64,000 nucleotides of DNA from an uncultured Gammaproteobacteria bacterium. Lineage in GTDB: Bacteria; Patescibacteriota; Microgenomatia; UBA8517. The notes beneath the pieces are model-generated. The model was not told the DNA's origin. It did not search any database and saw nothing but the letters and a program-made list of their open reading frames with translations. Both the position numbers and the translations under genes were made by a program. Each line of letters begins with the position of its first letter. Positions within the stretch are counted from its first letter, which is position 1. Below, one piece after another: positions 266-63,607 of this stretch. The stretch lies in the NCBI GenBank assembly GCA_964583105.1, contig CAZOUV010000001.1, positions 65,617 to 129,616 on the forward strand, in the 5' to 3' direction.

Positions 266-279
266 TGTGTTAAAATTTG

Positions 280-1821
280 ATGAGGATGAAAAAGTTCTTT
301 GGTGAGTGGAGATGGGTTATCTTTGTTGGTTTTCTTCTTTTGGTTTTTGCCTTTTTATTAAGAATATATAACTTGACCCTTCTTCCTGTTTTTGCGGATG
401 AGGCAATCTATATTCGCTGGTCTCAGATTATGAATGCCGAACCTACTTTAAGATTCTTGCCTCTTTCCGACGGAAAGCAACCTTTGTTTATGTGGATTTT
501 GATGTTTTTCGTAAATAAATTAAGTGACCCATTATTCGCAGGAAGAATTATTTCGGTTTTTTCAAGTATTGGAACCTTAATCGGAGTTTTTGCCGTAAGT
601 TATCTTCTTTTTAAAAATAAGATCCTTTCATTAATTTCTTCTTTTATCTGGGCAATTTGTCCGTTAAGTTTTTTCTTCGACAGGATGGCCTTGGTTGATT
701 CAATGCTTGCCATGTTTGGTATTTGGACTTTGTTTTTTGGAATTCTAACTGTAAAAACAAAAAGACTGGATATGGCTTTGATTGCGGGATTTATTTTTGG
801 ATGTGGAATGCTTACCAAATCTCCTGCTTTAATATTTTTACTTCTTCTTCCGCTTAGTTGGATTTTTCTTAAAAAACCTAAAGAATTATTTAAAGTAATT
901 CCACTTTATTTGGTTACCGCACTTGTCGGATACGGAATGTACAACATTTTAAGACTTGGTCCGAATTTTAATTTGATTGCCAGCCGAAATTTGGATTATG
1001 TTTTACCTCTGTCAAGACTTTGGACTTATCCCACGGATCCTTTAATTCCCCATATGATTGACGTTTTTGTTAAGTGGTTTCCTAAAATGGGTCCTTGGCC
1101 TATCCTACCTCTTATTCTTATGGCATTTTTAACTTCTTGGAAAGGGTATTGGAGAGAAAAAGTATTAATTACCCTTTCTTGGCTTGGACCACTGTTGGTT
1201 TTGGCCGAGTTTGGTAGAGCATTCACGGTCCGTTACATTCTTTTTATATTTCCAACTCTTTTTATATTTATTGCAACGGGAGTTTTGGCTAAAAACAAAA
1301 TTATTAAAGGTATCTATTATCTTTTCTTAATTATTTTTTCCGTAACGTCGCTTGTTTTTGATTATTATTTACTAACAAATCCTGCAAAGGCGGATTTGCC
1401 AAGAAGTGAAAGAAGCGGATATTTGGAAGAATGGACCGCAGGGGACGGAATAAAAGAGATTGCGGATTATCTTAAAGAAGAAGAACTGAAAGATCCCAAT
1501 AAAAAAATAGTTGTGGGAACCGAGGGGTATTTCGGAACTCTTCCCGACGGGCTTCAAATGTATCTTAATAAAAATCCAAAGATTATTGTTATCGGAGTGG
1601 GACTTGATTTAAGCGAAATTCCCAAAAGCCTTGCGGAATCGAAAGATGCAGGAAATAAAACATACCTTGTTATTAATGAATCCAGGTTTGGGGGCGATCC
1701 CGATAAATTAGGCTTAAAACTTATCGCAAGTTACCCAAAATCGCCCAGAAAAGACACCAAATCTAAGGAATTTTATCTTAAAGGTCCTCAGGAAGTATTA
1801 TTATTCTTTGAGCTTCAGTAA
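280..1821 (+). CDS. GT-C fold membrane glycosyltransferase, PMT/ArnT-like (GT39/GT83-like)
   Basis: TTG at 277, first ATG at 280; multi-TM protein with 'PVFADEAIYIRWSQ' DE motif in the first loop, resembling the ArnT 'DEARYA' / PMT DE motif; C-terminal soluble domain. Confidence 0.6.
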   Translation: MRMKKFFGEWRWVIFVGFLLLVFAFLLRIYNLTLLPVFADEAIYIRWSQIMNAEPTLRFLPLSDGKQPLFMWILMFFVNKLSDPLFAGRIISVFSSIGTLIGVFAVSYLLFKNKILSLISSFIWAICPLSFFFDRMALVDSMLAMFGIWTLFFGILTVKTKRLDMALIAGFIFGCGMLTKSPALIFLLLLPLSWIFLKKPKELFKVIPLYLVTALVGYGMYNILRLGPNFNLIASRNLDYVLPLSRLWTYPTDPLIPHMIDVFVKWFPKMGPWPILPLILMAFLTSWKGYWREKVLITLSWLGPLLVLAEFGRAFTVRYILFIFPTLFIFIATGVLAKNKIIKGIYYLFLIIFSVTSLVFDYYLLTNPAKADLPRSERSGYLEEWTAGDGIKEIADYLKEEELKDPNKKIVVGTEGYFGTLPDGLQMYLNKNPKIIVIGVGLDLSEIPKSLAESKDAGNKTYLVINESRFGGDPDKLGLKLIASYPKSPRKDTKSKEFYLKGPQEVLLFFELQ

Positions 1822-1836
1822 TGGTACAATTTAAGC

Positions 1837-3300
1837 GTGGAAGGCGAAATTGAGATAAATACGGTCAAAAGCCGTGCCGTAAGAGGTGTAGTTACCTTAA
1901 CCGGCAGAACCTTACTTTTAAATCTTATCTCTTTTGTTTCTCAAGGCCTTCTTTGGCTTTTTTTAAACCCCTCCCAATTCGGTACCTTTTTAATCGTTTC
2001 GGCAACAGTAAATTTTTTATCATATTTTGCCGACATTGGTTTGGGAGCGGCTCTTATTCAAAAGAAGGAAGTTCCCCAAGAGGTTGATTACAGAACCGTA
2101 TTTACTGTTCAGGAAATACTGGTAACAACAATCTTGGTTATAATTTTTCTTTTGGGCCCGACACTTACAAAAACACACTCCCTAACTCACGAGGGACTTA
2201 TGCTTTTATATGCCTTGGGAGGATCTTTTTTCTTAGCTTCTCTTAAAAATATTCCTTCGATTATGCTTGAAAGAAAACTGGAGTTTGGAAAATTTGTAAT
2301 TCCTCAGGTTTTGGAAAATATGGTTTACAGTATCTGCGTTGTTTTTTTTGCATGGAAAGGATTTGGTATTACAAGCTTTACCTATTCAGTTCTTATAAGG
2401 GGAGTCGTGGGTTTGGTTGCAATATACGTTCTTAATCCTTGGAAGCCTATGGTCGGTTTTTCCCTTAATTCTTTTAAAAATCTTATTAAATTTGGAATTC
2501 CCTACCAGTTAAATAATTTTTTGGCAACTCTTAAGGATGACGGTATGACAATTGTTTTGGGGGGAATTTTGGGGACTGCCGGAATAGGAATTTTAGGAAC
2601 GGCTCAAAAACTTGCCCAGTATCCTTTAAGGTTTTTCATGGATAATGTAACTAAAGTAACCTTTCCCGCATTTTCCCGGATGCAGGAAAATAGAGAAGAA
2701 CTTTCAAGAACTCTTTCCAGATCAATATTTTTTATTTGCTCCCTTGTCTTTCCTGCCCTTATTGGTCTTATCATAGTTTTTCCTAATATCATTGAGGCAA
2801 TTCCAAAGTATACGAAGTGGTCTCCTGTTTATCCTGTTTTGATATTTTTGGCGGTAAATTCTTTTTGGGCGGCAGCAACAACCCAGCTTACAAATTTTCT
2901 TAATGCGGTGGGGAAAATTAAAACCACCTTTAAGTTGATGATTATGTGGACTGCTCTTACCTGGGCTATGGTTCCTTTTTTTTCCAAATATTGGGGAGTA
3001 ACCGGAGCAGGAATTTCCTATATGATAATAGGATTTAGTTCGGCAATTGTCTTTTATATAGTTAAAAAACATATAGACTGGAAAATAGGTTATTCGGTAG
3101 GAATGCCTCTTATCTCGTCTTTGGCAATGGGTCTTATAATTTATATTGTTCAAAACTCACTTCGGGTTGGAGGATACAAAGAACTTATTGTTTTGGTTCT
3201 TCTTGGTCTAATTTTTTACTTTGGCTTTTTATATCTTCTTGTAGGAAGCTCATTAAGCGAAGATGTTAAAAAATCTGTTAAAACGTTTTTGGGAAAGTAG
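1837..3300 (+). CDS. wzx: Wzx-like oligosaccharide flippase (MOP superfamily polysaccharide biosynthesis protein)
   Basis: GTG start; ~12-14 TM; N-terminal 'RGVVTLTGRTLLLNLISFVSQGLLWLFLNPSQFG...GLGAALIQ' typical of PF01943/PF13440 flippases. Confidence 0.65.
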   Translation: MEGEIEINTVKSRAVRGVVTLTGRTLLLNLISFVSQGLLWLFLNPSQFGTFLIVSATVNFLSYFADIGLGAALIQKKEVPQEVDYRTVFTVQEILVTTILVIIFLLGPTLTKTHSLTHEGLMLLYALGGSFFLASLKNIPSIMLERKLEFGKFVIPQVLENMVYSICVVFFAWKGFGITSFTYSVLIRGVVGLVAIYVLNPWKPMVGFSLNSFKNLIKFGIPYQLNNFLATLKDDGMTIVLGGILGTAGIGILGTAQKLAQYPLRFFMDNVTKVTFPAFSRMQENREELSRTLSRSIFFICSLVFPALIGLIIVFPNIIEAIPKYTKWSPVYPVLIFLAVNSFWAAATTQLTNFLNAVGKIKTTFKLMIMWTALTWAMVPFFSKYWGVTGAGISYMIIGFSSAIVFYIVKKHIDWKIGYSVGMPLISSLAMGLIIYIVQNSLRVGGYKELIVLVLLGLIFYFGFLYLLVGSSLSEDVKKSVKTFLGK

Positions 3301-4978
3301 ATTAATTATTACCCTTATACTTTTAGGAAGCATAATCTGGTCTTTGACTATGGTAAGAAGTGGGTTGGTAACGCCAACCGGTATGGGATTTTGGGGAGCT
3401 AGTGGACATGACGGAGTTTGGCACATTGCTCTTGCCAATCAGTTAACCCAGTTTCCTTTCAAAAATCCCGTTTTTTCCGGAACATTTCTTCAGAACTATC
3501 ATTTCGGTTTCGATTTACTCATGGCATTTATTAATCTGGAAACGGGAATTTCTTTAAAAAATCTCTATTTTCAAATTCTTCCCCCGATTTTTGCATTCTT
3601 AATAGGTTTTTTAACTTATAAATTTGTTAAGTTATTGACCAAATCCAAAAAATCTGCATTTTGGTCTGCATTTTTTGTTTATTTCGGAGGAGGTTTGGGT
3701 TGGCTTGTCACCTTCTTAAGAAACGGAAAGTTTGACGGAGAAAGCATGTTTTGGTCACATCAGGCAATTTCAACTTTAGTCAATCCTCCATTTGCTCTTT
3801 CTTTGATTTTTATTCTTTCCGGACTTATTTTTCTTTTGAAATATAAAAAAAATAATAAGCCGTATTTATTGATATTGTCATCAATATTTTTTGGTCTTCT
3901 TATTGAAATAAAAGTCTATGCTGGGATTTTGGTTTTAGCGGGGCTTTTTATATCTTCTTTGTGGAGAGTTTTTAAAGAAAAGAAAAAAGATATTCTTTTT
4001 GTGTTTTTGATTTCACTGACAATCTCTCTGTTTTTGTTTTTTGAATTCGGCAGTAAAAATCCCCAAAGTTTAATCGTTTTTCAGCCCTTCTGGTTCTTGG
4101 AAACCATGATGGGCCTTAGCGACAGACTTGGATGGATTAAATTCCATTCGGCAATGACCACCTACAGAATGGGGGGGATTTGGATTAAGGCAATCTTGGC
4201 TTACGGGGTTGCTTTTATGATTTTTATTTTGGGAAACACGGGAACAAGAATTTTATTTATTAAGGAAGCTTTTAAAAAATATGATTCGACTAAAGTTTTT
4301 ATGTTAAGTGTAATTTTAACAGGTATTATAATTCCTACGTTTTTTTTGCAGAAGGGAACTCCGTGGAACACAATCCAGTTTTTTTATTATTCATTGTTTT
4401 TCTCTGCAATTTTAACAGGCATTGCGGTATCGCAGTTTAACAAGTATCTATTAACAGTTGTTGTACTGCTGACTCTCCCCACAACCATTGGAGCAATGAA
4501 GCATTATTTACCCAGAAATCCACCTGCTTTTCTTTCACCTTTAGAAATTGAAGCCTTAAATTTTTTAAAGAATGAGCCTAAGGGAGTGGTTTTAACATTT
4601 CCGTTTGATTCAATTAAGGCAAGAGAGGCGGAAGTTAATCCCCCAAGACCTTTATATTTATACGATTCAACCGCATACGTTTCGGCCTTTTCCGAAAAAA
4701 TTACTTTTCTGGAAGATCAGGTAAATTTGGATATAACAGGGTACAACTGGAAAGAGAGACTTGATGATATTAATAAATGGTACAAAGAACCAAATTTACA
4801 AAAAGCCAGAGAGTTTTTGAAAGAAAACAGTATTAAATATATTTATTGGCTGAAAGGGGATAAACAATATCTTTACGCCACGGAACAAAGATCTTTTTTG
4901 GGAGAAACAGATTTGGTGATCGAAAAAATATTTGAGAATAAAGAAGTAGGCATTTACATGGTAAAATCAGAGATATGA
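3263..4978 (+). CDS. Large polytopic membrane protein, 'GHDG-WHIAL' family (putative GT-C-like glycosyltransferase/polymerase); paralog of 22320-24152
   Basis: Shared motifs with the minus-strand gene 22320-24152: 'GASGHDGVWHIALANQ...FKNPVFSGTFLQNYHF' vs 'SAHGHDGTWHIALMEE...FENPIFAGEKLVNYHF', 'GGESMFW..Q..S...NPP' and a C-terminal 'YNW' domain. Confidence 0.5.
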   Translation: MLKNLLKRFWESRLIITLILLGSIIWSLTMVRSGLVTPTGMGFWGASGHDGVWHIALANQLTQFPFKNPVFSGTFLQNYHFGFDLLMAFINLETGISLKNLYFQILPPIFAFLIGFLTYKFVKLLTKSKKSAFWSAFFVYFGGGLGWLVTFLRNGKFDGESMFWSHQAISTLVNPPFALSLIFILSGLIFLLKYKKNNKPYLLILSSIFFGLLIEIKVYAGILVLAGLFISSLWRVFKEKKKDILFVFLISLTISLFLFFEFGSKNPQSLIVFQPFWFLETMMGLSDRLGWIKFHSAMTTYRMGGIWIKAILAYGVAFMIFILGNTGTRILFIKEAFKKYDSTKVFMLSVILTGIIIPTFFLQKGTPWNTIQFFYYSLFFSAILTGIAVSQFNKYLLTVVVLLTLPTTIGAMKHYLPRNPPAFLSPLEIEALNFLKNEPKGVVLTFPFDSIKAREAEVNPPRPLYLYDSTAYVSAFSEKITFLEDQVNLDITGYNWKERLDDINKWYKEPNLQKAREFLKENSIKYIYWLKGDKQYLYATEQRSFLGETDLVIEKIFENKEVGIYMVKSEI

Positions 4979-5832
4979 TATCGGTAGTTATAAATACACT
5001 AAACGACGAAGCACAAATTGCCCGTGCAATTGTCTCCGTAAAATCCTTGGCCGATGAAATTGTTCTTTGCGACATGGAATCGTCCGATAAAACAGTGGAG
5101 ATTGCAGAAAAACACGGAGCAAAAGTCTTTTCCCACAAAAAGGAAAGTTACGTTGAACTTGTTAGAAATTTTATGATTTCAAAAGCAGGTGGAGATTGGA
5201 TACTGATTTTGGATCCGGATGAAGAGATATCTTCGAAGCTTTCTTCAAAATTGAAAGAAATTGTTAAGAAAAACGAAGCCGATTATTACAGAATCCCAAG
5301 AAAAAATATTATTTTCGGAAAGTGGATGAAACATACCAACTGGTGGCCTGATTACAATATCCGATTTTTTAAGAAGGGGTTTGTTTCATGGAGCGAGGTT
5401 ATTCATGCCGTGCCTATGACTCAAGGGAAAGGTATGGATCTTCCCGAAAAAGAAGACAATGCAATCATTCATCATAACTATGAAAGCATTGATCAGTATT
5501 TCGAAAAAATGCTTCGCTATACCGAAGCACAGAAAGACAATCTCCTAAAAGGTGGCTATGTTTTTTCATGGAAGGATTTGATTAAAAAACCTCTGGGGGA
5601 GTTTTTGACTAGGTTTTTTTCGGCGGAAGGATTTAAAGACGGGGTTCACGGACTTATCCTTTCTTTGCTTCAGGCTTTTTCTGAACTTACCCTTTATGTC
5701 AAAATCTGGCAGAAACAGGGCTCAAGTGAAAAAGATTTGAGAAGAAGCGAACTTAGGGAAGAATTTAAAAAAGCAACCAAGGATGTAAAGTGGTGGGTAT
5801 CTAAAAAACTATCATGGCTAAAGTTTCTTTAA
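4975..5832 (+). CDS. Family 2 glycosyltransferase (LPS-core-type GT2 subfamily)
   Basis: N-terminal 'ISVVINTLNDE', 'ILDPDEEI' DxD-type motif, 'GKWMKHTNWWPDYNIRFF'; ATGA overlap with upstream gene; paralogous to 6722 and 32985. Confidence 0.7.
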   Translation: MISVVINTLNDEAQIARAIVSVKSLADEIVLCDMESSDKTVEIAEKHGAKVFSHKKESYVELVRNFMISKAGGDWILILDPDEEISSKLSSKLKEIVKKNEADYYRIPRKNIIFGKWMKHTNWWPDYNIRFFKKGFVSWSEVIHAVPMTQGKGMDLPEKEDNAIIHHNYESIDQYFEKMLRYTEAQKDNLLKGGYVFSWKDLIKKPLGEFLTRFFSAEGFKDGVHGLILSLLQAFSELTLYVKIWQKQGSSEKDLRRSELREEFKKATKDVKWWVSKKLSWLKFL

Positions 5833-6734
5833 TAATCCTCAATTGGAACGCACGAAAATTGACCCAGAGCGAACTTGAAAATGTTTCAAAGTTAAAAACA
5901 GGCAGTCATGAAGTTGAATGTTTGGTTATAGACAACGGTTCAACAGATGATTCTTTGGAAAAGCTTTCTATCTATCAGCTTCCCAATATGAATTATAAAT
6001 TTATGGAAACCAACGAAAATTTGGGATATGCGGGAGGAAATAACGTGGGACTTAAACATTCTCTGAAAAACAATTTTGACTATACAATTTTATTAAATAA
6101 TGACGTTGTCCTGCCCGAAGACTTGATTATCAAACTTGTCGATATTGCCGAAAAGGACAAAAAAATAGGACTTCTTTCCCCAAAAATGTATTTTGCCAAA
6201 GGCTATGAATTTCATAAAGACAGATATAAAGAAGAAGACTTGGGAAAAGTTATCTGGTTTGCGGGGGGAGTTATGGATTGGAAAAACATGTATACAGATC
6301 ACAGGGGAGTTGATGAAGTAGATAGCGGACAATACAACGAGGAAGCGGAAGTAGACAGTATAAACGGGGCATGCCTTCTTATGAGAAACAAGCTAATTAG
6401 CGATATTGGTTTACTTAAGGAGAAGTATTTTATGTATTGGGAGGACGCAGACTATTCAATTAGAGCAAAAAAAGCCGGATGGAAAGTCTTATACACCCCC
6501 GAAACCTTTATCTGGCACAAAGTATCTTCTTCATCTGCGGTGGGAAGTAATCTAAACGATTATTTTTTAACCAGAAACAGACTTGATTTTGGTTTAAGGT
6601 ATGCTCCTTTTAGAACAAAGCTGGCTTTAGTTAGAGAAAGTCTGAAATTTTTAGTTAATGGGAGAAGTTGGCAGAAAATCGGGGTCCGTGATTATTATCT
6701 TGGAAGGTGGGGTAAGGGATCATGGGGAAAATAA
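5814..6734 (+). CDS. Family 2 glycosyltransferase (rhamnosyltransferase-like GT2)
   Basis: 'VSLIILNWNARKLT...LVIDNGSTDDS', 'YWEDADYSIRAKKAGWKVLYTPETFIWHK' typical GT2 (WbbL-like) signatures. Confidence 0.7.
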   Translation: MAKVSLIILNWNARKLTQSELENVSKLKTGSHEVECLVIDNGSTDDSLEKLSIYQLPNMNYKFMETNENLGYAGGNNVGLKHSLKNNFDYTILLNNDVVLPEDLIIKLVDIAEKDKKIGLLSPKMYFAKGYEFHKDRYKEEDLGKVIWFAGGVMDWKNMYTDHRGVDEVDSGQYNEEAEVDSINGACLLMRNKLISDIGLLKEKYFMYWEDADYSIRAKKAGWKVLYTPETFIWHKVSSSSAVGSNLNDYFLTRNRLDFGLRYAPFRTKLALVRESLKFLVNGRSWQKIGVRDYYLGRWGKGSWGK

Positions 6735-7438
6735 AAATTTCGGCAATAGTTCTTATTGGAGGAAACTACGACAAAGAGCTTCTTAAAAAGTGTCTTAAAT
6801 CTTTGGAGTGGACTGATGAGATAGTAAAGGTGGAAAGCGAAAATATCCAAGGAAGTTTTTCTGAATGGAGAAATTACGGTGCAAAAAAAGCCTTGGGGGA
6901 ATGGCTTTTCTATGTTGATGCGGATGAGGAAGTAACACCTAAATTAAGGGAGGAAGTTCGGAGACAAATTCTTGAGGGAAAGTATCCTGCCTACGCAATT
7001 CCCAGAACAAACATTTTATTGGGAAAAAGAATGCGCTTTGGTGGGTGGAGTCCGGATTATGTTTTAAGGCTTATTAGGAAAGAGGTATTAGTCAAATGGG
7101 AAGGAAAACTTCACGAACAGCCGGTTATAAAAGGAGAAATCGGAAAATTAAAACAGCCTTTAATTCACAGATCCCACAGGAGTTTGACGGAAATGGTTGA
7201 AAAAACAAATGCATGGTCCGAAATCGAAGCAGATCTTTTATATAAATCGGGCCATCCCAAAATGAATATTTTCAGGTTTTGTTCAGCTGGTTTCAGGGAA
7301 TTTTGGCACAGGGGAATTGTTAAACTCGGATTTCTGGATGGAACAGTAGGGGTAATTGAAGTAATCTATCAGGTTTTCAGTAGGTTAATTACCTATTCCA
7401 AATTATGGGAAAAACAGTTAAAAAAGGAGACAATATAA
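6722..7438 (+). CDS. Family 2 glycosyltransferase (paralog of 4975 and 32985)
   Basis: 'ISAIVLIGGNYDKELLKKCLKSL', 'FYVDADEEV', 'KRMRFGGWSPDYVLRL'. Confidence 0.65.
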   Translation: MGKIKISAIVLIGGNYDKELLKKCLKSLEWTDEIVKVESENIQGSFSEWRNYGAKKALGEWLFYVDADEEVTPKLREEVRRQILEGKYPAYAIPRTNILLGKRMRFGGWSPDYVLRLIRKEVLVKWEGKLHEQPVIKGEIGKLKQPLIHRSHRSLTEMVEKTNAWSEIEADLLYKSGHPKMNIFRFCSAGFREFWHRGIVKLGFLDGTVGVIEVIYQVFSRLITYSKLWEKQLKKETI

Positions 7439-7803
7439 AAAAAATATACTATCGAAAATTAGTCAGGGATAAAATTCCTCAAAGGATAAAAGAATCAGGA
7501 GGAAGGTTTGAAATAAAAGCCTTATCCCAAATTGATTACAAAAAATATCTATTGGAAAAGGTAAGTGAAGAAGCGAGTGGAATATCTTTAGCAAAAAGCA
7601 GAAAGGAAGTAGCTAGCGAGATGGGGGATTTATTGGATGTTTTGGAAGAGGTGAAGACTCATTTTAAGATTAAACCTGAGGATTTAAAAGAATCAAGACA
7701 GAAAGAATTTCAAAGAAAAGGGGGCTTTAAGAAAAAAATATTTTTGATTTGGGCAGAAGATACGGGATATAAAACAAACGAAAAGAGGGGAAAAGCAAAA
7801 TGA
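7405..7803 (+). CDS. MazG-like nucleoside triphosphate pyrophosphohydrolase (all-alpha NTP-PPase)
   Basis: 'YRKLVRDKIPQRI' matches the conserved KLVRD(K/R)IPE motif of the MazG/HisE-like NTP-PPase family; 132 aa, acidic helical remainder. Confidence 0.45.
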   Translation: MGKTVKKGDNIKKIYYRKLVRDKIPQRIKESGGRFEIKALSQIDYKKYLLEKVSEEASGISLAKSRKEVASEMGDLLDVLEEVKTHFKIKPEDLKESRQKEFQRKGGFKKKIFLIWAEDTGYKTNEKRGKAK

Positions 7804-41812: not shown

Positions 41813-41822
41813 ATAAGAATAT

Positions 41823-43487: not shown

Positions 43488-43489
43488 AA

Positions 43490-49020: not shown

Positions 49021-49064
49021 TTTTGTTATAACCGATTATACATTAAATATGTTAATATTTGCCT
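49021..49064. promoter_or_regulatory. Divergent AT-rich promoter region between 48112(-) and 49065(+)
   Basis: TTGTTA and TATACA/TAATAT hexamers in the 44-nt gap; only inferred. Confidence 0.25.
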
Positions 49065-53064: not shown

Positions 53065-53453
53065 TTGACAAGGGTAACTCTTACGATTTCTTTCTCGTAT
53101 TTTTTCTGATCCCTTTCCTCGGTCGTAAATACGTAGAAGACTGTGTCTTCGAGAAACCTGGTTGCGTGAATTACATTCGGCCCAGTAAGAACCAAATCCC
53201 CAGCCTTCATTAATACGCTCTGTATTTTTGCCTTTGGCTTATCTGCCGGTTTTTCATAGTATCTTAATTTACCGCTTTCAAGAATAATCCAGTGATGATC
53301 CCTTTTGTGATAATGGTTTGCTCGGAGAGTACCTTTCTTGCTTGTAATTCTTAAAATCGACTTGACGCGGATTTTGTCGGGATCAAGAATTCTGGTAATT
53401 CCCCCCCTTTCGTCAATAAATTCTGGTTTGGTATGAACAATCTTTATTTTCAT
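53061..53453 (-). CDS. Cupin-fold sugar-nucleotide isomerase/epimerase (FdtA/WxcM-like or WbuC-like)
   Basis: 130 aa single cupin; 'ANHYHKRDHHW' His cluster, 'GPNVIHATRF'; lies between rfbB and the C-methyltransferase. Confidence 0.45.
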   Translation of the reverse strand: MKIKIVHTKPEFIDERGGITRILDPDKIRVKSILRITSKKGTLRANHYHKRDHHWIILESGKLRYYEKPADKPKAKIQSVLMKAGDLVLTGPNVIHATRFLEDTVFYVFTTEERDQKKYEKEIVRVTLVK

Positions 53454-53459
53454 AGAATA

Positions 53460-55179: not shown

Positions 55180-55208
55180 TTGAGCCGATTGTATGGATAA
55201 AGCCGGAG

Positions 55209-55916: not shown

Positions 55917-55938
55917 TCGTGATATTATATTTCAAGTC

Positions 55939-56667
55939 ATGCTTAAAAGCCATTATAAAGATGTGTTTCAAAATCAGTTTAGACATTGGTGGTATTTGGG
56001 AATGGCCGAAATAAACAAAATTCTCTTAAATAAATATCTGCCTAAAAAACACAATCTTAAAATACTTGATGCCGGGTGTGGTCCAGGTGCTATGCTTAAG
56101 GTCCTTAAAAGTTATGGAGAAGTTATCGGAATTGATTTATCGGACGAAGCTTTGAAATATGCAGGTACGATTGCTAAAGTTCAAAAGGGAAATATCATCA
56201 AAACAAAATTTAAAAAAGAAAGTTTTGATCTGATTATCTGTATGGATGTTCTTTATCACACATGGGTTAGGGACGAAGCCTTGGCTTTGAGGGAATTTGC
56301 AAGGATAATAAAAAAAGGAGGTCTTCTTCTATTAAGGGAACCTGCGTATGATTGGATGAGAGGAAGAGAGGACAGAGGAAGTCTTACAGCAAGAAGGTTT
56401 TCGAAAAAAAGATTAAAAAAATCCTTAACCGATAATGGATTTGATGTTGTCAGAATGTCCCATGCAAATTTTTTTCTTTTTCCGGCCGTTCTTATTATTC
56501 GGCTTTTAACAATGGCTAAAATTAAAACAGGTAAAAGTGACATGATTTTTCCTTCTAAGTTGATAAATTCAATTTTTGTTTATTTATTAAAGACCGAAGG
56601 TAATCTTATGAAATATCTGTCTTTACCTTTCGGAAGTTCTTTAATCTCTGTTTCAAGAAAAGTATAA
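55939..56667 (+). CDS. Class I SAM-dependent methyltransferase
   Basis: First ATG at 55939 (an upstream in-frame start at 55834 would overlap the divergent gene by 83 nt); 'ILDAGCGPGAMLKVL', 'LLLLREP'. Confidence 0.65.
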   Translation: MLKSHYKDVFQNQFRHWWYLGMAEINKILLNKYLPKKHNLKILDAGCGPGAMLKVLKSYGEVIGIDLSDEALKYAGTIAKVQKGNIIKTKFKKESFDLIICMDVLYHTWVRDEALALREFARIIKKGGLLLLREPAYDWMRGREDRGSLTARRFSKKRLKKSLTDNGFDVVRMSHANFFLFPAVLIIRLLTMAKIKTGKSDMIFPSKLINSIFVYLLKTEGNLMKYLSLPFGSSLISVSRKV

Positions 56668-56676
56668 TAATCCTTC

Positions 56677-57738
56677 ATGTACAAAGATTTATTTGAGAAA
56701 GCAAAACTAAATGAAAGAAAAAGATTAAACCTACCGGAGGGTATAAGTGAAATTAAAGGAAAAAGGGTTTTTAAGATGCTTGATGTCATACTTCCCGAAT
56801 CAGTAATTTTGCCACATAAACAAGTAACAACTGGGGTTATTGAAAAACTAACCTGTATTTATGGAGAAGTATTTGTGGTTTATTTAAACGAAAAAGGGAA
56901 AATAATTAAAGTCTTTTATCTCGACTCAAGAAAGAAAGATAACATTACAATCCCCCTCGGTGTTTATCATTCCATTGTTGCAATTTCTCCGGTTGTTTTA
57001 AAGGAAGAGATGGGGCAGCCAAAAACAAGTTTATATGATTCCAAAAAAGATAAAATATTTGCTCAATGGGGAAAAGATGTTATGAGAAATGTAAACGAAA
57101 GTATCCGAAGATTTTATGCGATAGGCCTTTACGCAAAAAAACCTTGGGAAAAATTCCTTTCGCGTTTTAAATTCTGGGAAGAACCATATGAGGTTGTTGA
57201 CAGAATGCTTCCCGATAGGGGGGTGATAACGGAGTTGGGTTGTGGTGAGGGACTTCTCTGTAATTACCTTGCAATTGCCAAACCCCAAAGAAAAATAATC
57301 GGAATAGAATTGGTCTCCCAAAGAATGAAATTGGCAGAAAAAGGAATTAAAAACACTTCATATAAGGTGGGAGATGTTGTAAAAACTCCTTTTAAGAAAG
57401 CAGATGCATTTATTCTTTTCCATGTTCTTCATCATCTTCCGGGTAAAAAAGCACAAGAAAAGGTATTGTTAAAAGCAAAAAATGCTTTAAATAAAGGCGG
57501 AAAACTTATAATTGTCGATGTGCATGTAACTTTTACTCTTAAATATCTTGCTGCTTGGGTTGCCGATCACTTTCTTGTCCCTTGGGTTTTTGAAAAAAGG
57601 TTTTTTACTCGAGCCTATTTCAGAACCGAACGGGAATGGAAAAAGACTCTTAATAATTTAGGGTTTCGTGTAAAAACAAGAGTTGAAACCAGAGGAAGAC
57701 CCTTCCCCAATATCGTTTTTGAGTGTAATCTGCCTTGA
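56677..57738 (+). CDS. Two-domain protein: N-terminal cupin-like (WxcM/WbuC-like) domain fused to a class I SAM methyltransferase
   Basis: N-terminal ~130 aa beta-rich '[16 protein letters not shown]'; C-terminal '[12 protein letters not shown]', '[12 protein letters not shown]', 'GGKLIIVDV'. Confidence 0.5.
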
Positions 57739-57796
57739 TGTCATTTATCCGAATTTATTGGACAAAACAGATTGTTTTAAATATACTTCTTCTCAT

Positions 57797-58894
57797 ATGA
57801 TTCCTCTTGTTGATGTCGGAAGGTTGCATAAACCCTTAAGAAAAGAGATTGATGCTGCCATCAAAAAAGTGATTGATTCTTCACAGTTTGTTTTTGGAGA
57901 AGATTTATCAAAATTTGAATCTGAATTTGCAAAATATTGCGATTGTAAATACGCACTTGGCGTAGGAAACGGCGGCGATGCATTAAGACTTGCGATTTTG
58001 GCTTTGGGAATAGGTCCGGGTGATGAAGTTATTTCCGTAGCCAATACTTTTACAGCAACCATAGACTGCGTTATCCATGCAGGAGCAAAACCGGTTTTGG
58101 TGGATTGTGACGAATACTTCAATATAGATGTAGATCAAATAGAAAAGGCAATTACTAAAAAAACCAAAGCTATTATCCCTGTTCATCTTTATGGTCAACC
58201 GGCCAGAATGGATAAAATTATGAAAATTGCTAAAAAGTATAAGTTATTTGTTATAGAGGATTGCGCACAGGCCCATGGAGCGGAACATATGGGTAAAAAA
58301 GTCGGATCTTTTGGGAATGTCGGTTGTTTTTCCTTTTATCCGGGGAAAAATTTGGGTGCAATGGGGGATGGGGGAATGCTTGTGACTAATAATAAATCTT
58401 TGTATAACAAACTTGAAAAATTAAGATTTTTCGGACAGGGAAAAAATAAGTATCATCATGAATTCGTTGGTTTTAATTCAAGATTGGATAATATCCAGGC
58501 TGCCATATTAAGAATAAAACTGAAATACCTTGATAAATGGAATATTCAAAGAAAAGAAATAGTTAAAACTTATAACAAACTTCTTGATGGGGTTGTTGAA
58601 ACTCCCAAAGAAATTAAAGACGCAAAACATGTATATCACCTCTATGTAGTAAAAACCCCAAAAAGAGACGGACTTCTTGAATACCTTGCCAAGAATAATA
58701 TTTTTGCAGGTATTCATTATCCGATTCCGCTTCATCTTCTTGATGCACATAAAAAATTACAATACAAAAATGGAGATTTCCCATCATCCGAGAAAAATGC
58801 AAAGACAATAATTTCTCTTCCCGTTTTTCCAGGAATGAGTAAAAGTGAGATTAAAGAAGTGTCTACCTCAATCAAAAAATTTCTTGTCAAATGA
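57797..58894 (+). CDS. DegT/DnrJ/EryC1/StrS-family sugar aminotransferase (PLP-dependent)
   Basis: ATG at 57797 (TTG 57683 upstream in frame); '[14 protein letters not shown]', '[14 protein letters not shown]', '[16 protein letters not shown]' (Lys for PLP). Confidence 0.85.
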
Positions 58895-61068
58895 AGATTC
58901 TTCGGATCACAAAAAAAAAGTATTTATTGGTAGCAATCTTATTGGTGTCTGCAATTCTTCGTTTTGTTGCTGTAAAACCGGGATATAATCCATACCATGG
59001 AGATGAAACTGCGATATGGGGAAGCGCTTCGGTAATGGTTAAGGAAGATACATTAGATCCCGGAAGATATGATTATCCCGGAACCGCTGCTACTATTAAT
59101 GCCTTCTTTTATAAATTTGTTTTTATCCCTCTTTCTTGGACAAAATTTACCCTTAGTAATTTTTGGGATATCGTAGATGGAAAGATAAAAATTCCGCTCA
59201 TCGAGAAAGAAAAGGATAAAATATTTGCAACACAAATAATAGGAGAAAGGGAAATAAACTCACTTTTTTGGTCAAGGTATATAACGGCGGCTTTTGGTGT
59301 AGGAACCGTATTTTTGATTTACCTTTTAGGAAAAAAAATGTTCTCCGAGGATATTGGTCTTTTGACATCATTATTTTTGGCATTTAATTATAAAAACGTA
59401 GTAAATTCTCATTTAGTGCTCCCAGATATTTACAATGCATTCTTTTTCATTCTTGCTATGATTGCATTTTGGAATTTGTATAAAAACAGTTCCGCAAAGA
59501 ATTATCTTTTGGCTGGGATTGCTGCAGGAATTTCATTCAGTGTTAAATATCAATCTTTCGTATTTTTACCGTTGCTTTTGATCCATCTAGCGATAAGTTT
59601 TAAAAACGGTTTTAGTCTGAAAAAACTTTTTGGCATTTATGCAATCGTTTCCGCATTTTCCATAATTCTTATTTTTCTTATTACGAATCCTTATTTTTTT
59701 ATAAACATAGAATATGTTTTTACCAAAATGAATGAAGAGTTTATAAAATATGGGATGGGAACAAATACTCTTAATCTTTTTCCTTATTCATACCTTTATC
59801 ATATTGATTATGGTCCAGTATTGTCTTTTATTGTGATATTGGGAACGTTGTCGGCAGTTTTTAAAGATAAATTCAAGAGTGTATTTTTACTTTCGGCAAT
59901 TGTCCCAGCATTTTATCTTTTCATATACTATTCAAGAGGTGGTTTCTACATAAGAAACTTTATTCCTTTGACACCGTTTCTTTTTCTTTTTGCTTCTAAC
60001 TTAATTTGCACCACAAAATTAAAAAAATGGTTTATTTCGATTCCTTTGATTATTCTTGCCATATATATCCCTGCCAAGAATTCGATAATCAGCTCTTATT
60101 GGTATACAAAACCATGGGGATATGAAATATTATCGAAGTGGCTAAAAGATCATATACCCAATGATGCGAAAATAGCATCCCACCCTTTTGACAGGTCTAT
60201 TTTGGCCGTTAAAACTAAAACTACGGAATTTTCTCCAAACGAAGCATTTTCCCTAATGGAACACAAGGAAAACGGTGCAGAATATGTGGTTGAGAATCTT
60301 GCATGGGCATCACTGCCTTTCTATTTTTGGATGAATTACAACTTAAATGAAGTAAACATTTTGTGGAATAAACCCGTTGATATTATGAGAAATACTTTTC
60401 ATGGTCTTGCTGCGGAAGAAATGCTGCGCTATATGATTTTTGCAAACGACAGATCTTGGCAAAGTCCTGATATGTTTTTTGTAATGGTCAAACTTCCCGA
60501 TTGGCCAAAAACCGAAATGAAAGAGATTGCGAAATTTGACTTTAATCAAAATTATCAAGATTGGAAAAACTATGGTGGATCAGGACAGGCAAAATTTACG
60601 TACGAGAATGATATGATATCTTTTTCGCCCGGGGGAGAAAGATACCCAAATGTAAGAATAACATCTCCATTAATAAACATTAAATCCGGACATCTTTATA
60701 ATATTGAAGGATTTATTAAGACTGAGAAAATTCTCAATTCCAAGGAACGGGAAGGATTTTTAAGAATTGATTTTTGGACTGACAATCCAGATTTAAATAA
60801 AACTGGCATAATATCCAGTGTCTCTTCAAGGGTCTACGGAACTGATAATTGGATCAAAAAAGAAATATTCGAAAGAGCACCCGAAAATGCGAAATATCTG
60901 ACTGTTAGTTTTCAAGTCTATTCGACTTCGGTTACAAAAATTTTGTTTGATAATATATCCATTAAGGAGTCTTTTTCGCCCGTCGAAAATATTACTAAAA
61001 AAGAACCATATATCAACAAGAAAATTGATTTAAACTTCCTTTATCCCAATTCGCACGGAAATTTATAA
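58891..61068 (+). CDS. GT-C membrane glycosyltransferase (PMT/ArnT-like) with C-terminal carbohydrate-binding-module-like domain
   Basis: '[16 protein letters not shown]' DE motif; ~12 TM; C-terminal ~180 aa jelly-roll-like ('[13 protein letters not shown]...[23 protein letters not shown]'); A9 tract in codons 7-9. Confidence 0.55.
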
Positions 61069-61069
61069 T

Positions 61070-62452
61070 ATGACATTTATATCTATTCAATTTGTAATTT
61101 TTTTTCTTATTGTCTCCTTTCTCTATTTTCTGATCCCCTATAAATTTAGATGGCTTCTTTTACTTATTGCAGGAATAATTTTTTACATAAGTTTTATTCC
61201 TGTTTACGTTTTGTTTTTGTTTTTTCTGATAATTGTTGACTACTTGGCGGCCATATTTATTTCAAAATCAAAAGGTAAGAGAAGGATAGTATTTTTGTTC
61301 GTTAGCATACTTTCAACTTTAAGCGCTCTTTTTATTTTTAAATACTATAATTTCTTTGTTGTAAATTTCGAAAGTTTTATTAGATTTTGGGATTGGAATT
61401 ATAGTCCTAAGCTTTTGAAATTTGCGCTTCCCGTTGGATTGTCCTTTCATACTTTTCAGAGCCTTGCCTATGTTATTGAGGTTTATAGAAAGAAACAAAA
61501 AGTAGAGAAACATTTGGGAATATATGCGCTATACGTAATGTTTTATCCCCAACTTATGGCGGGACCAATTGAAAGACCGGGACATATGCTTCCTCAATTT
61601 AGAAAAAAACATTATTTTGAATATGAACGGGTAGTCAGGGGTTTAAGGTTGATGCTTTGGGGAGCGTTTCAAAAAGTGGTAATTGCAGATCAGGCGGCAA
61701 AGGTCGTCAATTATGTTTACGGAGGAGCACACCTTCATAACGGTTTAAGTTTAATTATTGCAACAATACTTTTTACTTTTCAGATATTTTGTGATTTTGA
61801 TGGTTACACTAATATTGCAAGGGGTGCCGCAAGGGTGATGGGGTTTGAACTTATATTAAACTTCAAAAGACCGTATTTGGCAGAAACTTTTAAGGATTTC
61901 TGGCATAGATGGCACATTTCTCTTTCTTCCTGGTTTAGAGATTATATTTATATTCCTTTAGGTGGAAGCAGGGTGGGATATTTAAGACTTGTTTTTAATA
62001 TAATGGTCACCTTCGTTCTAAGTGGACTTTGGCACGGAGCCAATTGGACATTTATTGTTTGGGGAGCTCTTCATGGAATCTTCCTTGTCCTTTTCAGCGA
62101 CAGACTTAAATCCAAACTTTTGGTTTTTTTGTTTGTAACATTTGCCTGGATATTTTTCAGGGCAGAGAGTATGGATGTTGCTATCCACATAATAAAAAAT
62201 CTGTTTAATCGTTGGTCTCTGGAGATTATGGGCGGAAAGTTCTTGGATATGAAATTAATCAATTGGATAATTCTTCTTGCAAGTATTTTTGTAATGTTTG
62301 TTATACACAAAATACAGGAAAGAAAAAGTATCCAAAAAATATTTGAAAATAGACCTGCTTTTTCAAGGTGGGTAGTTTATTATGCCGTTCTTATTTTAAT
62401 TTTGGCATTTTCGTTTAGGGGTAGAGAACATTTTATTTATTTCCAGTTTTAA
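61070..62452 (+). CDS. MBOAT-family membrane-bound O-acyltransferase (AlgI/DltB-like)
   Basis: 'FWHRWHISLSSWFRDYIYIPLGG' with the invariant His; ~10 TM. Confidence 0.85.
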   Translation: MTFISIQFVIFFLIVSFLYFLIPYKFRWLLLLIAGIIFYISFIPVYVLFLFFLIIVDYLAAIFISKSKGKRRIVFLFVSILSTLSALFIFKYYNFFVVNFESFIRFWDWNYSPKLLKFALPVGLSFHTFQSLAYVIEVYRKKQKVEKHLGIYALYVMFYPQLMAGPIERPGHMLPQFRKKHYFEYERVVRGLRLMLWGAFQKVVIADQAAKVVNYVYGGAHLHNGLSLIIATILFTFQIFCDFDGYTNIARGAARVMGFELILNFKRPYLAETFKDFWHRWHISLSSWFRDYIYIPLGGSRVGYLRLVFNIMVTFVLSGLWHGANWTFIVWGALHGIFLVLFSDRLKSKLLVFLFVTFAWIFFRAESMDVAIHIIKNLFNRWSLEIMGGKFLDMKLINWIILLASIFVMFVIHKIQERKSIQKIFENRPAFSRWVVYYAVLILILAFSFRGREHFIYFQF

Positions 62453-63607
62453 ATGAGAAAAGAAAAAAAAGAAGTTAAAAATTTTTTATTGAAGTTTCTG
62501 GTTTTTTCCTTTCCTATTCTTTTGGTTGTGGGATACATAGTTTATACAGGACTTGTTCTTCCTGTTGATTATTTTACTTTTAGGGCTTGGGAGGCATTAA
62601 GTGTTTACAAAAAGAACGATATTTTATCTGGTCCATTTTACCCCAACATGCATTTGACTAAAACGGAATTGGGGGATTTGTCAGGGCTTTCAAAATATCC
62701 TGTCGCAAAAGAAGTTGAGTGGTATACGGATAAATATGGATATAGAATAAAAAATTATAAAGATAGAAATTACCAAATAGTCATTATTGGAGACTCAAGT
62801 ATTGCTGGATCAGCATTAACTCAAGACAAAACAATTTCCGAAATAATATATCAAAAAACAGGTTTGGGAGTTTATCCTTATGCCCCCTCCAACTTTAATA
62901 ATTATTTAAAAGAAAAACGTTTCAAAGATAATCCTCCTAAAATAGTGGTTATTGGATCTGTGGAGAAGCTGGTTTTGGGTATGTCTGAAGTTTTACCAAA
63001 AGAGGAGCTCGTTTCTAAAAATATTCCATGGTCTTCTTGGGGGATTGTCTCCTATTTTGCTATTATGGAAGACAGGCTTAAAAAAGATACTTTTGTAAAT
63101 TACATTCGAGCAAGATTTAAAGAAATACCGAGATACTTAAAAGAACCCGGTTTTAAACCCAGGAAACCAGGCGTTCTTACTATCGAAAATCCAGGTTTTG
63201 GATTAAGAAGTGAGATGGTTTTTTATTCGGAACCCGAGGCTTACTTTAAATTATGGAAGGAAAGTGAAATTAATAGGGTTGTTTTTGCACTTAATCAGTA
63301 TATAGAAGAATTGGCTAAAACAAGTACAAAACTTATTTTTATGCCTATTCCCAACAAGGAAAATATTTATTGGAGACAGGTTAAGGGTGGAATTTGGACA
63401 AACAATCTTAAAAGGTTGGTTGATAAAGCTAATGAATCGGGAATTGCAACTGTTGATTTATGGTCGGTATATAATAGCTTGTACAATAAAAATCCAGACA
63501 GGCTTTTATACCATACGGACGATACGCATTGGAATGAGTATGGGGTAGATGTTGCCAGCGATAAATTAATTGAGAAGATAAATGAAATTAGTAAAGAAAA
63601 TAATTGA
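62453..63607 (+). CDS. AlgX/AlgJ/DltD-like SGNH-type acyltransferase partner of the MBOAT
   Basis: N-terminal TM anchor, 'VIIGDSSIAGS' GDS block, 'HTDDTHWNEYG' DxxH block; directly follows the MBOAT gene. Confidence 0.6.
   Translation: MRKEKKEVKNFLLKFLVFSFPILLVVGYIVYTGLVLPVDYFTFRAWEALSVYKKNDILSGPFYPNMHLTKTELGDLSGLSKYPVAKEVEWYTDKYGYRIKNYKDRNYQIVIIGDSSIAGSALTQDKTISEIIYQKTGLGVYPYAPSNFNNYLKEKRFKDNPPKIVVIGSVEKLVLGMSEVLPKEELVSKNIPWSSWGIVSYFAIMEDRLKKDTFVNYIRARFKEIPRYLKEPGFKPRKPGVLTIENPGFGLRSEMVFYSEPEAYFKLWKESEINRVVFALNQYIEELAKTSTKLIFMPIPNKENIYWRQVKGGIWTNNLKRLVDKANESGIATVDLWSVYNSLYNKNPDRLLYHTDDTHWNEYGVDVASDKLIEKINEISKENN

Follow-up and report, generated by a model that had tools for sequence, protein, structure and literature searches.

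What does a bacterium build with some twenty membrane glycosyltransferases encoded next to one another? This question is raised by a 64,000-nucleotide stretch of contig CAZOUV010000001.1, referred to below as the window, in which 55 open reading frames (ORFs) of at least 120 amino acids (aa) tile positions 277-63607 (Table 1). Pfam scans of all 55 ORFs, supplemented by NCBIfam and Protein Data Bank (PDB) profile matches and by the further comparisons described below, yielded 38 glycosyltransferases, namely 20 of the GT-C type, 14 of family GT2 and four of family GT4. Two Wzx-type flippases, five methyltransferases (g10, g36, g45, g50 and g51), one MBOAT/AlgX pair and a set of sugar-tailoring genes (a short-chain dehydrogenase (SDR), an NAD-dependent epimerase, a dTDP-glucose 4,6-dehydratase, two cupins and a DegT aminotransferase) complete the inventory. 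An earlier interpretation made from the letters alone (the sequence-only reading) had arrived at about 20 GT-C, about 14 GT2 and four GT4 enzymes with the same flippases, methyltransferases, nucleotide-sugar cassette and acyltransferase pair, and its tally is reproduced here. The answer that we favour, with moderate confidence, is that the locus serves as an assembly line, conserved in large part, by which a complex glycopolymer of the envelope is made, such as a secondary cell-wall polysaccharide or a lipoglycan, and not a variable decoration kit.

The locus is exceptionally compact. Counted as maximal ORFs, coding sequence makes up 99.6% of the stretch, the largest intergenic gap is at most 50 bp, and 30 of the 47 same-strand junctions overlap, with a median spacing of -4 nt. 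Every gene throughout 277-22369 and 24177-41812 lies on the plus strand, in agreement with the dense head-to-tail, co-directional packing noticed earlier (280-22369 and 24177-41812), and the strand switches at 22.3-24.2, 41.8-42.6, 48.1-49.1 and 51.8-55.9 kb. Scanning of the 64-kb window detected no tRNA gene and no Rfam family, and neither integrase, transposase nor phage genes were among the Pfam matches of the ORFs (PHROGs and PADLOC were not run). On this basis a mobile element or defence island was rejected as a reading of the locus. The end of a Ham1/RdgB-like gene marks the left edge of the glycosylation locus, while a 21st GT-C-like ORF begins at 63582 and exits the window, and the locus thus extends past the right edge. 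As maximal ORFs the divergent g20 (minus) and g21 (plus) have start codons only 18 bp apart (24158-24177), and therefore either the promoters lie inside coding sequence or the true starts are further in.

GT-C-type glycosyltransferases in the window

Judged mainly by sequence, the window encodes 20 GT-C-type membrane glycosyltransferases, with g33 as an only probable member. Ten of these polytopic proteins (g01, g14, g21, g23, g24, g25, g26, g30, g39 and g53) exceed the Pfam gathering threshold for a family of this fold class (PMT, PMT_2, PTPS_related/YfhO or PIG-V). Five more have sub-threshold Pfam matches at the equivalent N-terminal position, and the remaining assignments are based on a structure model, on Pfam matches of homologues, on paralogy or on profile comparison. 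The dominance of GT-C enzymes claimed by the sequence-only reading is therefore upheld, at 20 of 38 transferases.

Three of the indirect assignments illustrate the range of the evidence. The protein g09 has no Pfam match itself, but among its homologues at 60-78% identity there are some, at 60-72%, that match PF13231 or PF02366 (PMT_2/PMT), and its family profile aligned with the PMT_2 array of the window at an hhalign probability of 97.3%; the same profile found nothing in the PDB by sequence, even at E <= 10. For g18 the corresponding probability was only 26.6%, and its assignment stands on the PF02366 matches of its homologues. For g33 the alignment to the PMT_2 array, at the equivalent position, reached 84%. 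The negative controls in these comparisons, Wzx and MBOAT, stayed below 1%.

All 20 candidates and the partial 21st carry an acidic motif shortly after the first transmembrane helix (TM1), in the form of DE, DD, DxxxD, HD or HPD and about 10-30 residues past the helix, and a crude hydropathy scan gave 6-15 hydrophobic peaks for each of the 20. Structure prediction, which had been proposed as a check of the GT-C folds, was applied to g03 and g33. Likeness to solved GT-C enzymes in three dimensions was seen for g03 alone, with an oligosaccharyltransferase (OST)-like fold, whereas the single-sequence AlphaFold2 model of g33 was unusable (predicted local distance difference test score (pLDDT) 44, predicted template modelling score (pTM) 0.26).

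Organism and conservation in relatives

The named homologues of g03, g09 and g18 all belong to Candidatus Woesebacteria, Microgenomates, Dojkabacteria or the "Patescibacteria group", in line with the Patescibacteria-like origin suggested earlier, and the best genome match of the 4,6-dehydratase g47 is a metagenome-assembled genome (MAG) of Daviesbacteria (61%). By these named homologues, and not by marker genes, the window is placed on the chromosome of a Woesebacteria-like bacterium within the Microgenomates (Patescibacteria). Dehydratase homologues at 56-59% were also encountered in MAG records entitled 'TPA_asm: uncultured Gammaproteobacteria bacterium' (L002, L003, L005-L007, L011, L015 and L045; L numbers denote loci fetched for comparison). 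The Gammaproteobacteria labels of those records look doubtful; L051, which comes from an assembly of similar accession pattern, shares its gene order with the window along 21 kb.

An argument for an assembly line is that gene order is preserved. In L051, a 157-kb NCBI contig, and L047, a JGI contig, g01-g17 and g19 occur in the same order at 52-87% identity. The more distant L048 retains g01-g12 at 59-75%, and in the still more distant L050 the genes g17, g19, g20 (minus strand) and g18 stay together. A second block, 32985-51836, is found complete in no single locus, but most of g27-g32, g34, g35, g38, g39, g41, g43 and g44 can be found across L053, L056, L057 and L058, where identities are 24-72% and the relative order is maintained apart from a few shifted positions. 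Distant relatives, too, have these genes in GT-C-rich surroundings.

The paralogues within the window share only 25-39% identity. For every member of the arrays g13-g15 and g16-g17 there is a separate orthologue, at 79-87% identity, whereas paralogues share 29-39%, and the arrays of the first block are therefore old, with each copy kept. This pattern fits GT-C enzymes that would catalyse distinct, non-redundant reactions, and not a combinatorial or rapidly diversifying set.

Three spots are variable. In relatives g33 is swapped for a secreted protein with a weak DUF3863 match; in L052-L058 a secreted protein of about 400 aa with such a match occupies the slot between a g32-like GT2 and a g34-like GT4. 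The second spot is g45-g49 (3-C-methyltransferase, cupin, dehydratase and two GT2 enzymes), which is missing where relatives keep its neighbours. The third is the PMT_2 array g21-g26, with its low identities in the fetched loci (29-38%).

Proposed pathway and its alternatives

From the enzyme families, which are established from sequence, we infer the chemistry of the following steps. Cytoplasmic GT2 and GT4 enzymes (g04-06, g08, g11-12, g27, g29, g34, g38 and g43-44) would assemble oligosaccharides on a polyprenyl phosphate carrier, these units would be tailored by the SDR, the epimerase and the methyltransferases, and the dTDP-sugar cassette (g45-47 and g51-52) would provide an aminated and/or 3-C-methylated 6-deoxyhexose. 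The flippases g02 and g31 would then turn the lipid-linked intermediates over, so that they face the outside of the membrane. In parallel, the Dpm1/ArnC/GtrB-like GT2 enzymes g22, g32, g41, g42, g48 and g49 would charge polyprenyl phosphate with single sugars, and at least 20 GT-C enzymes would spend these lipid-linked sugars outside, each adding one defined residue or branch. Models for this step are the Emb/Aft/Mpt/PimE enzymes of mycobacterial arabinogalactan and lipoarabinomannan, and YfhO, GtlB and GacL of Gram-positive wall polymers. The best candidate for taking the Wzx-exported unit, by en bloc transfer or polymerisation, would be g03/g20, and the MBOAT/AlgX pair (g54 and g55) would finally O-acylate the product extracellularly. 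In the surface glycan itself, the cassette g45-g52 (51829-58894) predicts a branched-chain and/or amino 6-deoxyhexose.

Lipid-linked monosaccharides as donors for the GT-C enzymes, already postulated in the sequence-only reading, appear plausible since six GT2 enzymes resemble polyprenyl-phosphate sugar synthases. Among these, g41 aligns from end to end with ArnC and GtrB, and the alignment takes in its C-terminal membrane helices (transmembrane peaks at 237-271). How the charged lipids would cross the membrane is suggested by the streptococcal Gac system, for which a Wzx-type flippase of C55-P-GlcNAc has been proposed (PMC8035078). By this precedent the cargo of the two Wzx proteins could be oligosaccharide units, monosaccharide carriers or a combination of the two. 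A GtrA-type flippase was matched neither in the ORFs of at least 120 aa nor in the small ORF at 26514-26822. This two-helix ORF directly after g22 fills the sole apparent gap of the locus, and in L049 the same slot (1994-2299) holds an unrelated 101-aa ORF with three helices. The arrangement recalls GacI/GacJ, but homology to GacJ or GtrA was not found and both identifications were rejected.

Where an MBOAT protein is paired with an SGNH/AlgX protein, the two typically O-acetylate glycans outside the cytoplasm (AlgI/J/X, PatA/B). Their targets are polysaccharides, namely alginate, peptidoglycan and Bacillus wall polysaccharide, and g54 and g55 therefore provide a modest argument for a glycan acceptor.

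The protein proposed to act on the Wzx-exported unit requires closer description. No Pfam match was obtained for g03 at E <= 0.01, STT3 (PF02516) included, and a profile of 46 family members hit no PDB chain at E <= 10, so its fold had to come from modelling. The AlphaFold2 model, built on 46 sequences, is confident (pLDDT 86.5, pTM 0.89) and combines a GT-C membrane domain with a C-terminal mixed alpha/beta domain, as in OSTs. Foldseek placed STT3, AglB and PglB on top (E 2e-9 to 1e-6) and AftA, ArnT, AftD and Pmt4 lower, at 1e-4 or worse; AftB and PimE were also among the structural matches. In canonical OSTs the WWDYG motif binds the +2 Ser/Thr of the sequon. Neither WWD[YWF]G, WWD nor relaxed variants occurred in g03 and g20, the same holds for all of 270 family members, and for this reason g03 is not filed under GT66 and canonical OST membership was rejected.

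The g03 family is large: it counts 1,704 representative clusters when the limit is E <= 1e-3 and still 921 when it is E <= 1e-30, and the named members of the g03/g20 family that were seen were Patescibacteria every time. In the window and in L046-L049 and L051 the family member directly follows Wzx. In L050 it does so as well, fused to a secreted N-terminal domain, and about 30 of the best 150 family representatives carry such an extra domain of about 480 aa. The secreted domain found in the g33 slot of relatives is likewise fused N-terminally to many g03-family proteins. One representative from outside the window, P0366 (1,639 aa), unites Wzx (Polysacc_synt_3, 9.5e-55), a secreted DUF3863-like domain and a g03-type domain; it is the sole one of such length among the best 150 and is either a true fusion or a gene-calling artefact. 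Residues 369-376 of g03 form an invariant N-T-I-Q-F-F-Y-Y. Chlor_Arch_YYY (TIGR03662) is an uncharacterised membrane family of Chloroflexi and Archaea, and its match to g03, at 20 bits against a cut-off of 300, serves as a lead only. Together with the NTIQFFYY stretch it hints at a distant family link.

One may speculate that g03/g20 handles the Wzx-exported unit by en bloc transfer or polymerisation onto a non-sequon acceptor (wall glycan, lipid or protein). In full, this would make the family a new OST-like GT-C class replacing both Wzy and the LCP/WaaL ligases, a proposal that we regard as tentative and, as it stands, rather unlikely. Since the locus encodes no phosphoglycosyl transferase, the oligosaccharide might under this proposal be initiated by AglJ/Dpm1-like GT2 enzymes on polyprenyl monophosphate, by analogy with haloarchaeal N-glycosylation.

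Several observations weigh against a conserved assembly line. Matches to the PMT_2 array g21-g26 among the fetched loci reach only 29-38%, g45-g49 have none apart from the dehydratase used as bait and one 44% match of g45, and g50-g55 could not be traced in relatives. The matches of the Dpm1-like GT2 enzymes are far under the NCBIfam equivalog cut-offs, and the sequence does not identify the donor sugars. The Pfam matches of the window include neither an initiating phosphoglycosyl transferase of the WecA/MraY or WbaP/PglC type nor a Wzy polymerase, a regulator of chain length, a ligase of the LCP or WaaL type or a GtrA flippase (the families checked being Wzy_C, EpsG, Bac_transf, Glycos_transf_4 (MraY/WecA), Wzz and LytR_cpsA_psr). 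Pfam scans also revealed no RmlA encoded in the window. Initiator, Wzy, regulator, ligase, GtrA and RmlA are equally unlisted in the annotated flanks of relatives; the first four may lie elsewhere in the genome. Finally, PMT-type enzymes also O-glycosylate proteins, and the acceptor may be a protein or a glycan.

The alternative that survives best, and that we consider possible though clearly less probable than a single assembly line, is a set of independent glycan pathways placed side by side without a common product. These could be a Wzx-dependent polymer from 277-22369, a second polymer or capsule from 32985-51836, a variable deoxysugar cassette and an O-acetylation module. Such a division would explain the two Wzx genes, the separate conservation of two synteny blocks in different relatives, the four strand switches and the absence of the deoxysugar cassette where its neighbours are kept. 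Against it, the 63 kb are contiguous and free of unrelated genes, and the neighbourhoods recurring in distant relatives are rich in GT-C genes. The two explanations overlap, differing just in the number of end products.

General protein O-glycosylation is an unlikely explanation. The PMT-like enzymes would put polyprenyl-phosphate sugars on Ser/Thr of secreted proteins (S-layer, pilins, lipoproteins), in parallel with actinobacterial Pmt and streptococcal PgfS/PgfM1 and GtrB/PgtC2, and the paralogues would extend the O-glycans. PMT_2, however, is a generic GT-C core that is also present in ArnT, GtlB and others acting on lipids or polymers. Two Wzx proteins, twelve cytoplasmic GT2/GT4 enzymes and an MBOAT/AlgX pair typify polysaccharide pathways, the window encodes no protein rich in Ser/Thr as a candidate acceptor, and g03 is devoid of the sequon-binding motif.

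The sequence-only reading had seen in the locus a combinatorial system, and a fast-evolving surface-glycan repertoire diversifying for host attachment or phage evasion now seems quite doubtful. Tandem paralogue arrays do exist, g33 is exchanged for an unrelated gene, the g21-g26 array is poorly matched, and g45-g49 looks exchangeable, with best matches scattered across phyla; g45 has its best match among the fetched loci, at 44%, in a Nanoarchaeota MAG. The combinatorial claim is nevertheless contradicted for the first third, where 277-22369 is collinear and its old paralogues have one-to-one orthologues in the same order, and most of 32985-51836 is order-conserved in more distant relatives as well. 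Nor did the ORFs reveal any repeats, recombinases, transposases or signs of phase variation.

That a metagenome-type contig joined glycosylation genes of several organisms into a chimera is extremely improbable given its uniform G+C (0.31-0.38), three proteins 17 kb apart that match at 100% on one 151,413-bp NCBI contig, and a gene order repeated in independent JGI, ENA, NCBI and Logan assemblies.

Gene content, known systems and significance

A few genes in Table 1 deserve comment. The faintly MazG-like g07 (NTP pyrophosphohydrolase) lies inside a GT2/GT4 operon, and no counterpart was detected in the fetched related loci. The membrane-anchored g19 is kept beside GT87-like genes in L051 and beside g17- and g20-like genes in L050. 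The secreted g35 recurs in five related loci on the downstream side of the g34 orthologue, either immediately next to it or at a distance of 5-7 kb, and may assist the pathway in a structural or regulatory role. The small cupin g46 is possibly a keto-sugar isomerase or epimerase; its comparison with the PDB gave no informative match, only marginal oxalate-decarboxylase cupins.

Table 1. Genes of the window with their position, strand, predicted product and the evidence for it (percentages are amino acid identities; "vs" precedes a model's cut-off score).
Gene	Position	Strand	Predicted product	Evidence
	2-265	+	3' end of Ham1/RdgB-like NTP pyrophosphatase gene	66% identity to Ham1p_like gene preceding g01 orthologue in L048/L049
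g01	277-1821	+	GT-C (PMT_2)	PMT_2 42.9 bits vs 26.1; ADE motif after TM1; orthologues 63-81%
g02	1837-3300	+	Wzx-type flippase no. 1	Polysacc_synt_3 5e-50; orthologues 69-75%
g03	3263-4978	+	Pfam-less GT-C, OST-like fold, adjoins Wzx	AlphaFold2 model and Foldseek
g04	4975-5832	+	GT2, cytoplasmic	Glycos_transf_2 2.3e-18
g05	5814-6734	+	GT2	Glyco_tranf_2_3 6.7e-14
g06	6722-7438	+	GT2, divergent	Glycos_transf_2 24.2 bits vs 23.3; g04 paralogue, 5.6e-29
g07	7405-7803	+	Small soluble protein, weakly MazG-like	NCBIfam mazG 2e-4, far under cut-off; no Pfam match
g08	7800-8822	+	GT4	Glycos_transf_1 4.7e-24
g09	8824-10350	+	GT-C, distant PMT_2-like	Homologues' Pfam matches; hhalign; invariant FGYDQARD after TM1
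g10	10347-11006	+	S-adenosylmethionine (SAM) methyltransferase	Methyltransf_11 1e-22
g11	11011-11898	+	GT2	Glycos_transf_2 5e-24
g12	11904-12734	+	GT2	Glycos_transf_2 2.1e-27
g13	12686-14377	+	GT-C (YfhO/PTPS_related type), array member 1	39% to g14 full-length; QDD motif; orthologues 84-87%
g14	14381-16060	+	GT-C (PTPS_related), array member 2	PF10131 53.0 bits vs 26.4
g15	16072-17727	+	GT-C, array member 3	29-31% to g13 and g14 full-length; weak PMT_2 match; orthologue 79%
g16	17724-18989	+	GT-C (GT87-like)	g17 paralogue; 83% orthologue in L051 with GT87 match
g17	18986-20188	+	GT-C (GT87-like)	GT87 24.1 bits vs 25; HPD motif after TM1
g18	20172-21719	+	GT-C (PMT/ArnT-like)	PF02366 in nearly all of 88 homologues
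g19	21770-22369	+	Membrane-anchored 199-aa protein	No family match; orthologues at same position, L051 80%, L050 36%
g20	22320-24158	-	GT-C, second g03-family member	32% to g03, 5e-83; hhalign 100% to g03-family profile; L050 orthologue 56%
g21	24177-25793	+	GT-C (PMT_2), array member	PMT_2 36.9 bits
g22	25780-26517	+	Soluble Dpm1/AglJ/PpgS-like GT2, candidate polyprenyl-P-sugar synthase	NCBIfam AglJ 1.6e-26; PpgS 3.5e-19 covering 2-220 of 226; Pyrococcus Dol-P-Man synthase (DPMS 5mlz) 4.2e-7
	26514-26822	+	Small two-helix membrane ORF, 102 aa	ORF list; no family match
g23	26812-28404	+	GT-C (PMT_2/PMT)	PMT_2 40.9 bits, PMT 28.9 bits
g24	28401-30050	+	GT-C (PMT_2/PMT)	PMT_2 46.8 bits, PMT 38.5 bits
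g25	30047-31435	+	GT-C (PMT_2)	PMT_2 36.2 bits
g26	31404-32972	+	GT-C (PMT_2/PMT)	PMT_2 54.5 bits, PMT 39.0 bits
g27	32985-33851	+	GT2	Glycos_transf_2 3.5e-19; orthologues 49-64%
g28	33855-34583	+	SDR	adh_short 8e-45
g29	34588-35580	+	GT4	Glycos_transf_1 2.5e-29
g30	35567-36748	+	GT-C (PIG-V/GT87-like)	Mannosyl_trans2 39.8 bits vs 22.4
g31	36736-37983	+	Wzx-type flippase no. 2	Polysacc_synt_3 6.3e-19; orthologues 49-59%
g32	37980-38711	+	Dpm1/PgfS-like GT2, candidate polyprenyl-P-sugar synthase	NCBIfam PgfS 1.1e-16, PpgS 1.5e-10; orthologues 66-72%
g33	38698-40179	+	Probable GT-C, lineage-specific	PMT_2 21.1 bits, sub-cut-off; hhalign; QDD motif
g34	40181-41311	+	GT4	Glycos_transf_1 2.2e-36; orthologues 55-64%
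g35	41315-41812	+	Secreted DUF5667 protein, 165 aa	DUF5667 1.1e-11
g36	41823-42557	-	SAM methyltransferase	Methyltransf_11 2.9e-25
g37	42582-43487	+	NAD-dependent sugar epimerase/reductase	Epimerase 1.9e-30
g38	43460-44707	+	GT4	Glycos_transf_1 9.9e-41
g39	44676-46730	+	GT-C (PMT_2), large C-terminal domain	PMT_2 51.1 bits; orthologues 48-52%
g40	46727-48133	+	GT-C (PMT_2-like)	PMT_2 25.8 bits vs 26.1; BLAST to g01 2.5e-10; hhalign 92%
g41	48112-49020	-	ArnC/GtrB-type polyprenyl-phosphate glycosyltransferase	ArnC 9hwj 7.9e-39, GtrB 5eke 3.1e-27, both full length
g42	49059-49796	+	Dpm1/AglJ-like GT2, candidate polyprenyl-P-sugar synthase	AglJ 2.1e-19; Dol-P-hexose transferase 2.5e-17, 2-192 of 213
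g43	49786-50799	+	GT2, two predicted C-terminal membrane helices	Glycos_transf_2 4.4e-22; transmembrane peaks
g44	50796-51836	+	GT2, two predicted C-terminal membrane helices	Glycos_transf_2 6.3e-24; orthologues 65-66%
g45	51829-53064	-	NDP-hexose 3-C-methyltransferase	Methyltransf_14 2.9e-55; MtmC 4rv9 3.9e-91, TcaB9 2e-64
g46	53061-53453	-	Small cupin	Cupin_2 5e-5, sub-cut-off
g47	53460-54488	-	dTDP-glucose 4,6-dehydratase	TIGR01181 427 bits vs 365
g48	54481-55179	-	Small soluble GT2, Dpm1/ArnC-like	Glycos_transf_2 3.7e-22; AglJ 1.6e-11 over 3-216 of 293
g49	55209-55916	-	Small soluble GT2, Dpm1/ArnC-like	ArnC model 3.9e-20, AglJ 1.6e-14
g50	55834-56667	+	SAM methyltransferase	Methyltransf_11 4.2e-20
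g51	56677-57738	+	WbuC-cupin/methyltransferase fusion	TIGR04366 WbuC 50.6 bits vs 42; Methyltransf_11 5.5e-12
g52	57683-58894	+	DegT/PseC-type sugar aminotransferase	PF01041 1.7e-118
g53	58891-61068	+	GT-C (PMT/PMT_2), 725 aa	PMT 52.5 bits, PMT_2 44.1 bits
g54	61070-62452	+	MBOAT O-acyltransferase (DltB/AlgI/PatA-like)	MBOAT 1.2e-23; DltB model 1.9e-37, sub-cut-off
g55	62453-63607	+	Membrane-anchored AlgX/SGNH-like protein, MBOAT partner	PF16822 ALGX 40.2 bits vs 26.5
	63582-64000	+	21st GT-C-like gene, 5' part	PMT_2 16.7 bits, weak; PWQDD after TM1; 28% to g33

The closest known parallels are the multi-component transmembrane glycosylation systems of Gram-positive bacteria, CsbB/GtcA/YfhO, GtlA/GtlB and GacI/GacJ/GacK/GacL, in which a GT-A (GT2) enzyme makes a polyprenyl-phosphate sugar, a flippase moves it (of the Wzx type in Gac) and a GT-C enzyme transfers the sugar outside (PMC8035078). 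The combination of Wzx, a soluble GT-A and a GT-C enzyme thus has a precedent in GacI/J/K/L of the group A carbohydrate (PMC8035078). Counterparts in the locus would be the six synthase-like GT2 enzymes for the GT-A part, g02 and g31 for Wzx and the 20 GT-C enzymes, and YfhO/PTPS_related and PMT_2 are the same Pfam types as in the Gram-positive systems. Those systems have one GT-C enzyme each, occur as one to four per genome, are scattered and merely decorate a polymer made elsewhere, whereas here at least 20 clustered GT-C enzymes outnumber the cytoplasmic transferases and no GtrA-type flippase was found.

Mycobacterial arabinogalactan and lipoarabinomannan (EmbA-C, AftA-D, MptA-C and PimE) are made by a series of non-redundant GT-C enzymes that use decaprenyl-P-arabinose and polyprenyl-P-mannose and build most of a heteropolysaccharide outside from lipid-linked monosaccharides. 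A similar serial action is proposed here, and GT87-like and PIG-V-like members (g16, g17 and g30) as well as the structural matches of g03 add to the resemblance. In Mycobacterium tuberculosis roughly 15-20 GT-C genes lie scattered across 4.4 Mb; the locus packs a similar number into 64 kb, and the genome around it, with an expected size of about 1 Mb, is about four times smaller. In the window, Pfam matched neither the decaprenyl-P-arabinose genes (UbiA-type PRPP transferase, DprE1/DprE2) nor the Emb/Aft families (GT53/GT85/GT89), and Emb-type carbohydrate-binding modules were not detected in the locus, the likeness to Aft being structural alone.

The locus differs from pgl/agl loci with STT3, AglB or PglB (GT66) in that g03 shows no PDB sequence match, STT3 Pfam match or WWDYG. 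With Wzx/Wzy clusters for O-antigen, capsule or secondary cell-wall polysaccharide it shares Wzx, GT2/GT4 blocks, nucleotide-sugar genes and methyl- and acyltransferases in co-directional order. It differs from them in that Wzy, initiator, regulator and ligase were not found and GT-C enzymes make up over half of the transferases.

The individual enzyme classes are all known. Unusual are the GT-C density, the ratio of GT-C to cytoplasmic transferases, the conservation of this architecture in a Patescibacteria lineage and the Wzx-linked OST-like family. For one Parcubacteria genome, 20 glycosyltransferases were counted genome-wide, and polysaccharides or a glycosylated S-layer were speculated upon (PMC5220378). 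A description of GT-C-rich loci in Patescibacteria was not found in the literature searched, the coverage of which is incomplete, so that this is weak evidence and the claim of novelty is provisional.

Patescibacteria, with their very small genomes, are believed to lead a life attached to other cells, and to our knowledge their surface chemistry is essentially unknown. In a Woesebacteria genome of about 1 Mb, a glycan locus of at least 64 kb takes up roughly 6%. Given this share and the conservation in relatives, its product is a prime candidate for the main envelope polymer, and likewise for the molecule that host cells and phages meet. Being compact, co-linear and for the most part conserved, the set of about 20 GT-C enzymes is also attractive for heterologous reconstitution. 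From the widespread g03/g20 family one could learn how a pathway that depends on Wzx manages without Wzy or a known ligase. If the tentative role proposed for this family were true, the main surface glycan would be built by a route undescribed in Bacteria and finished by a run of about 20 GT-C enzymes.

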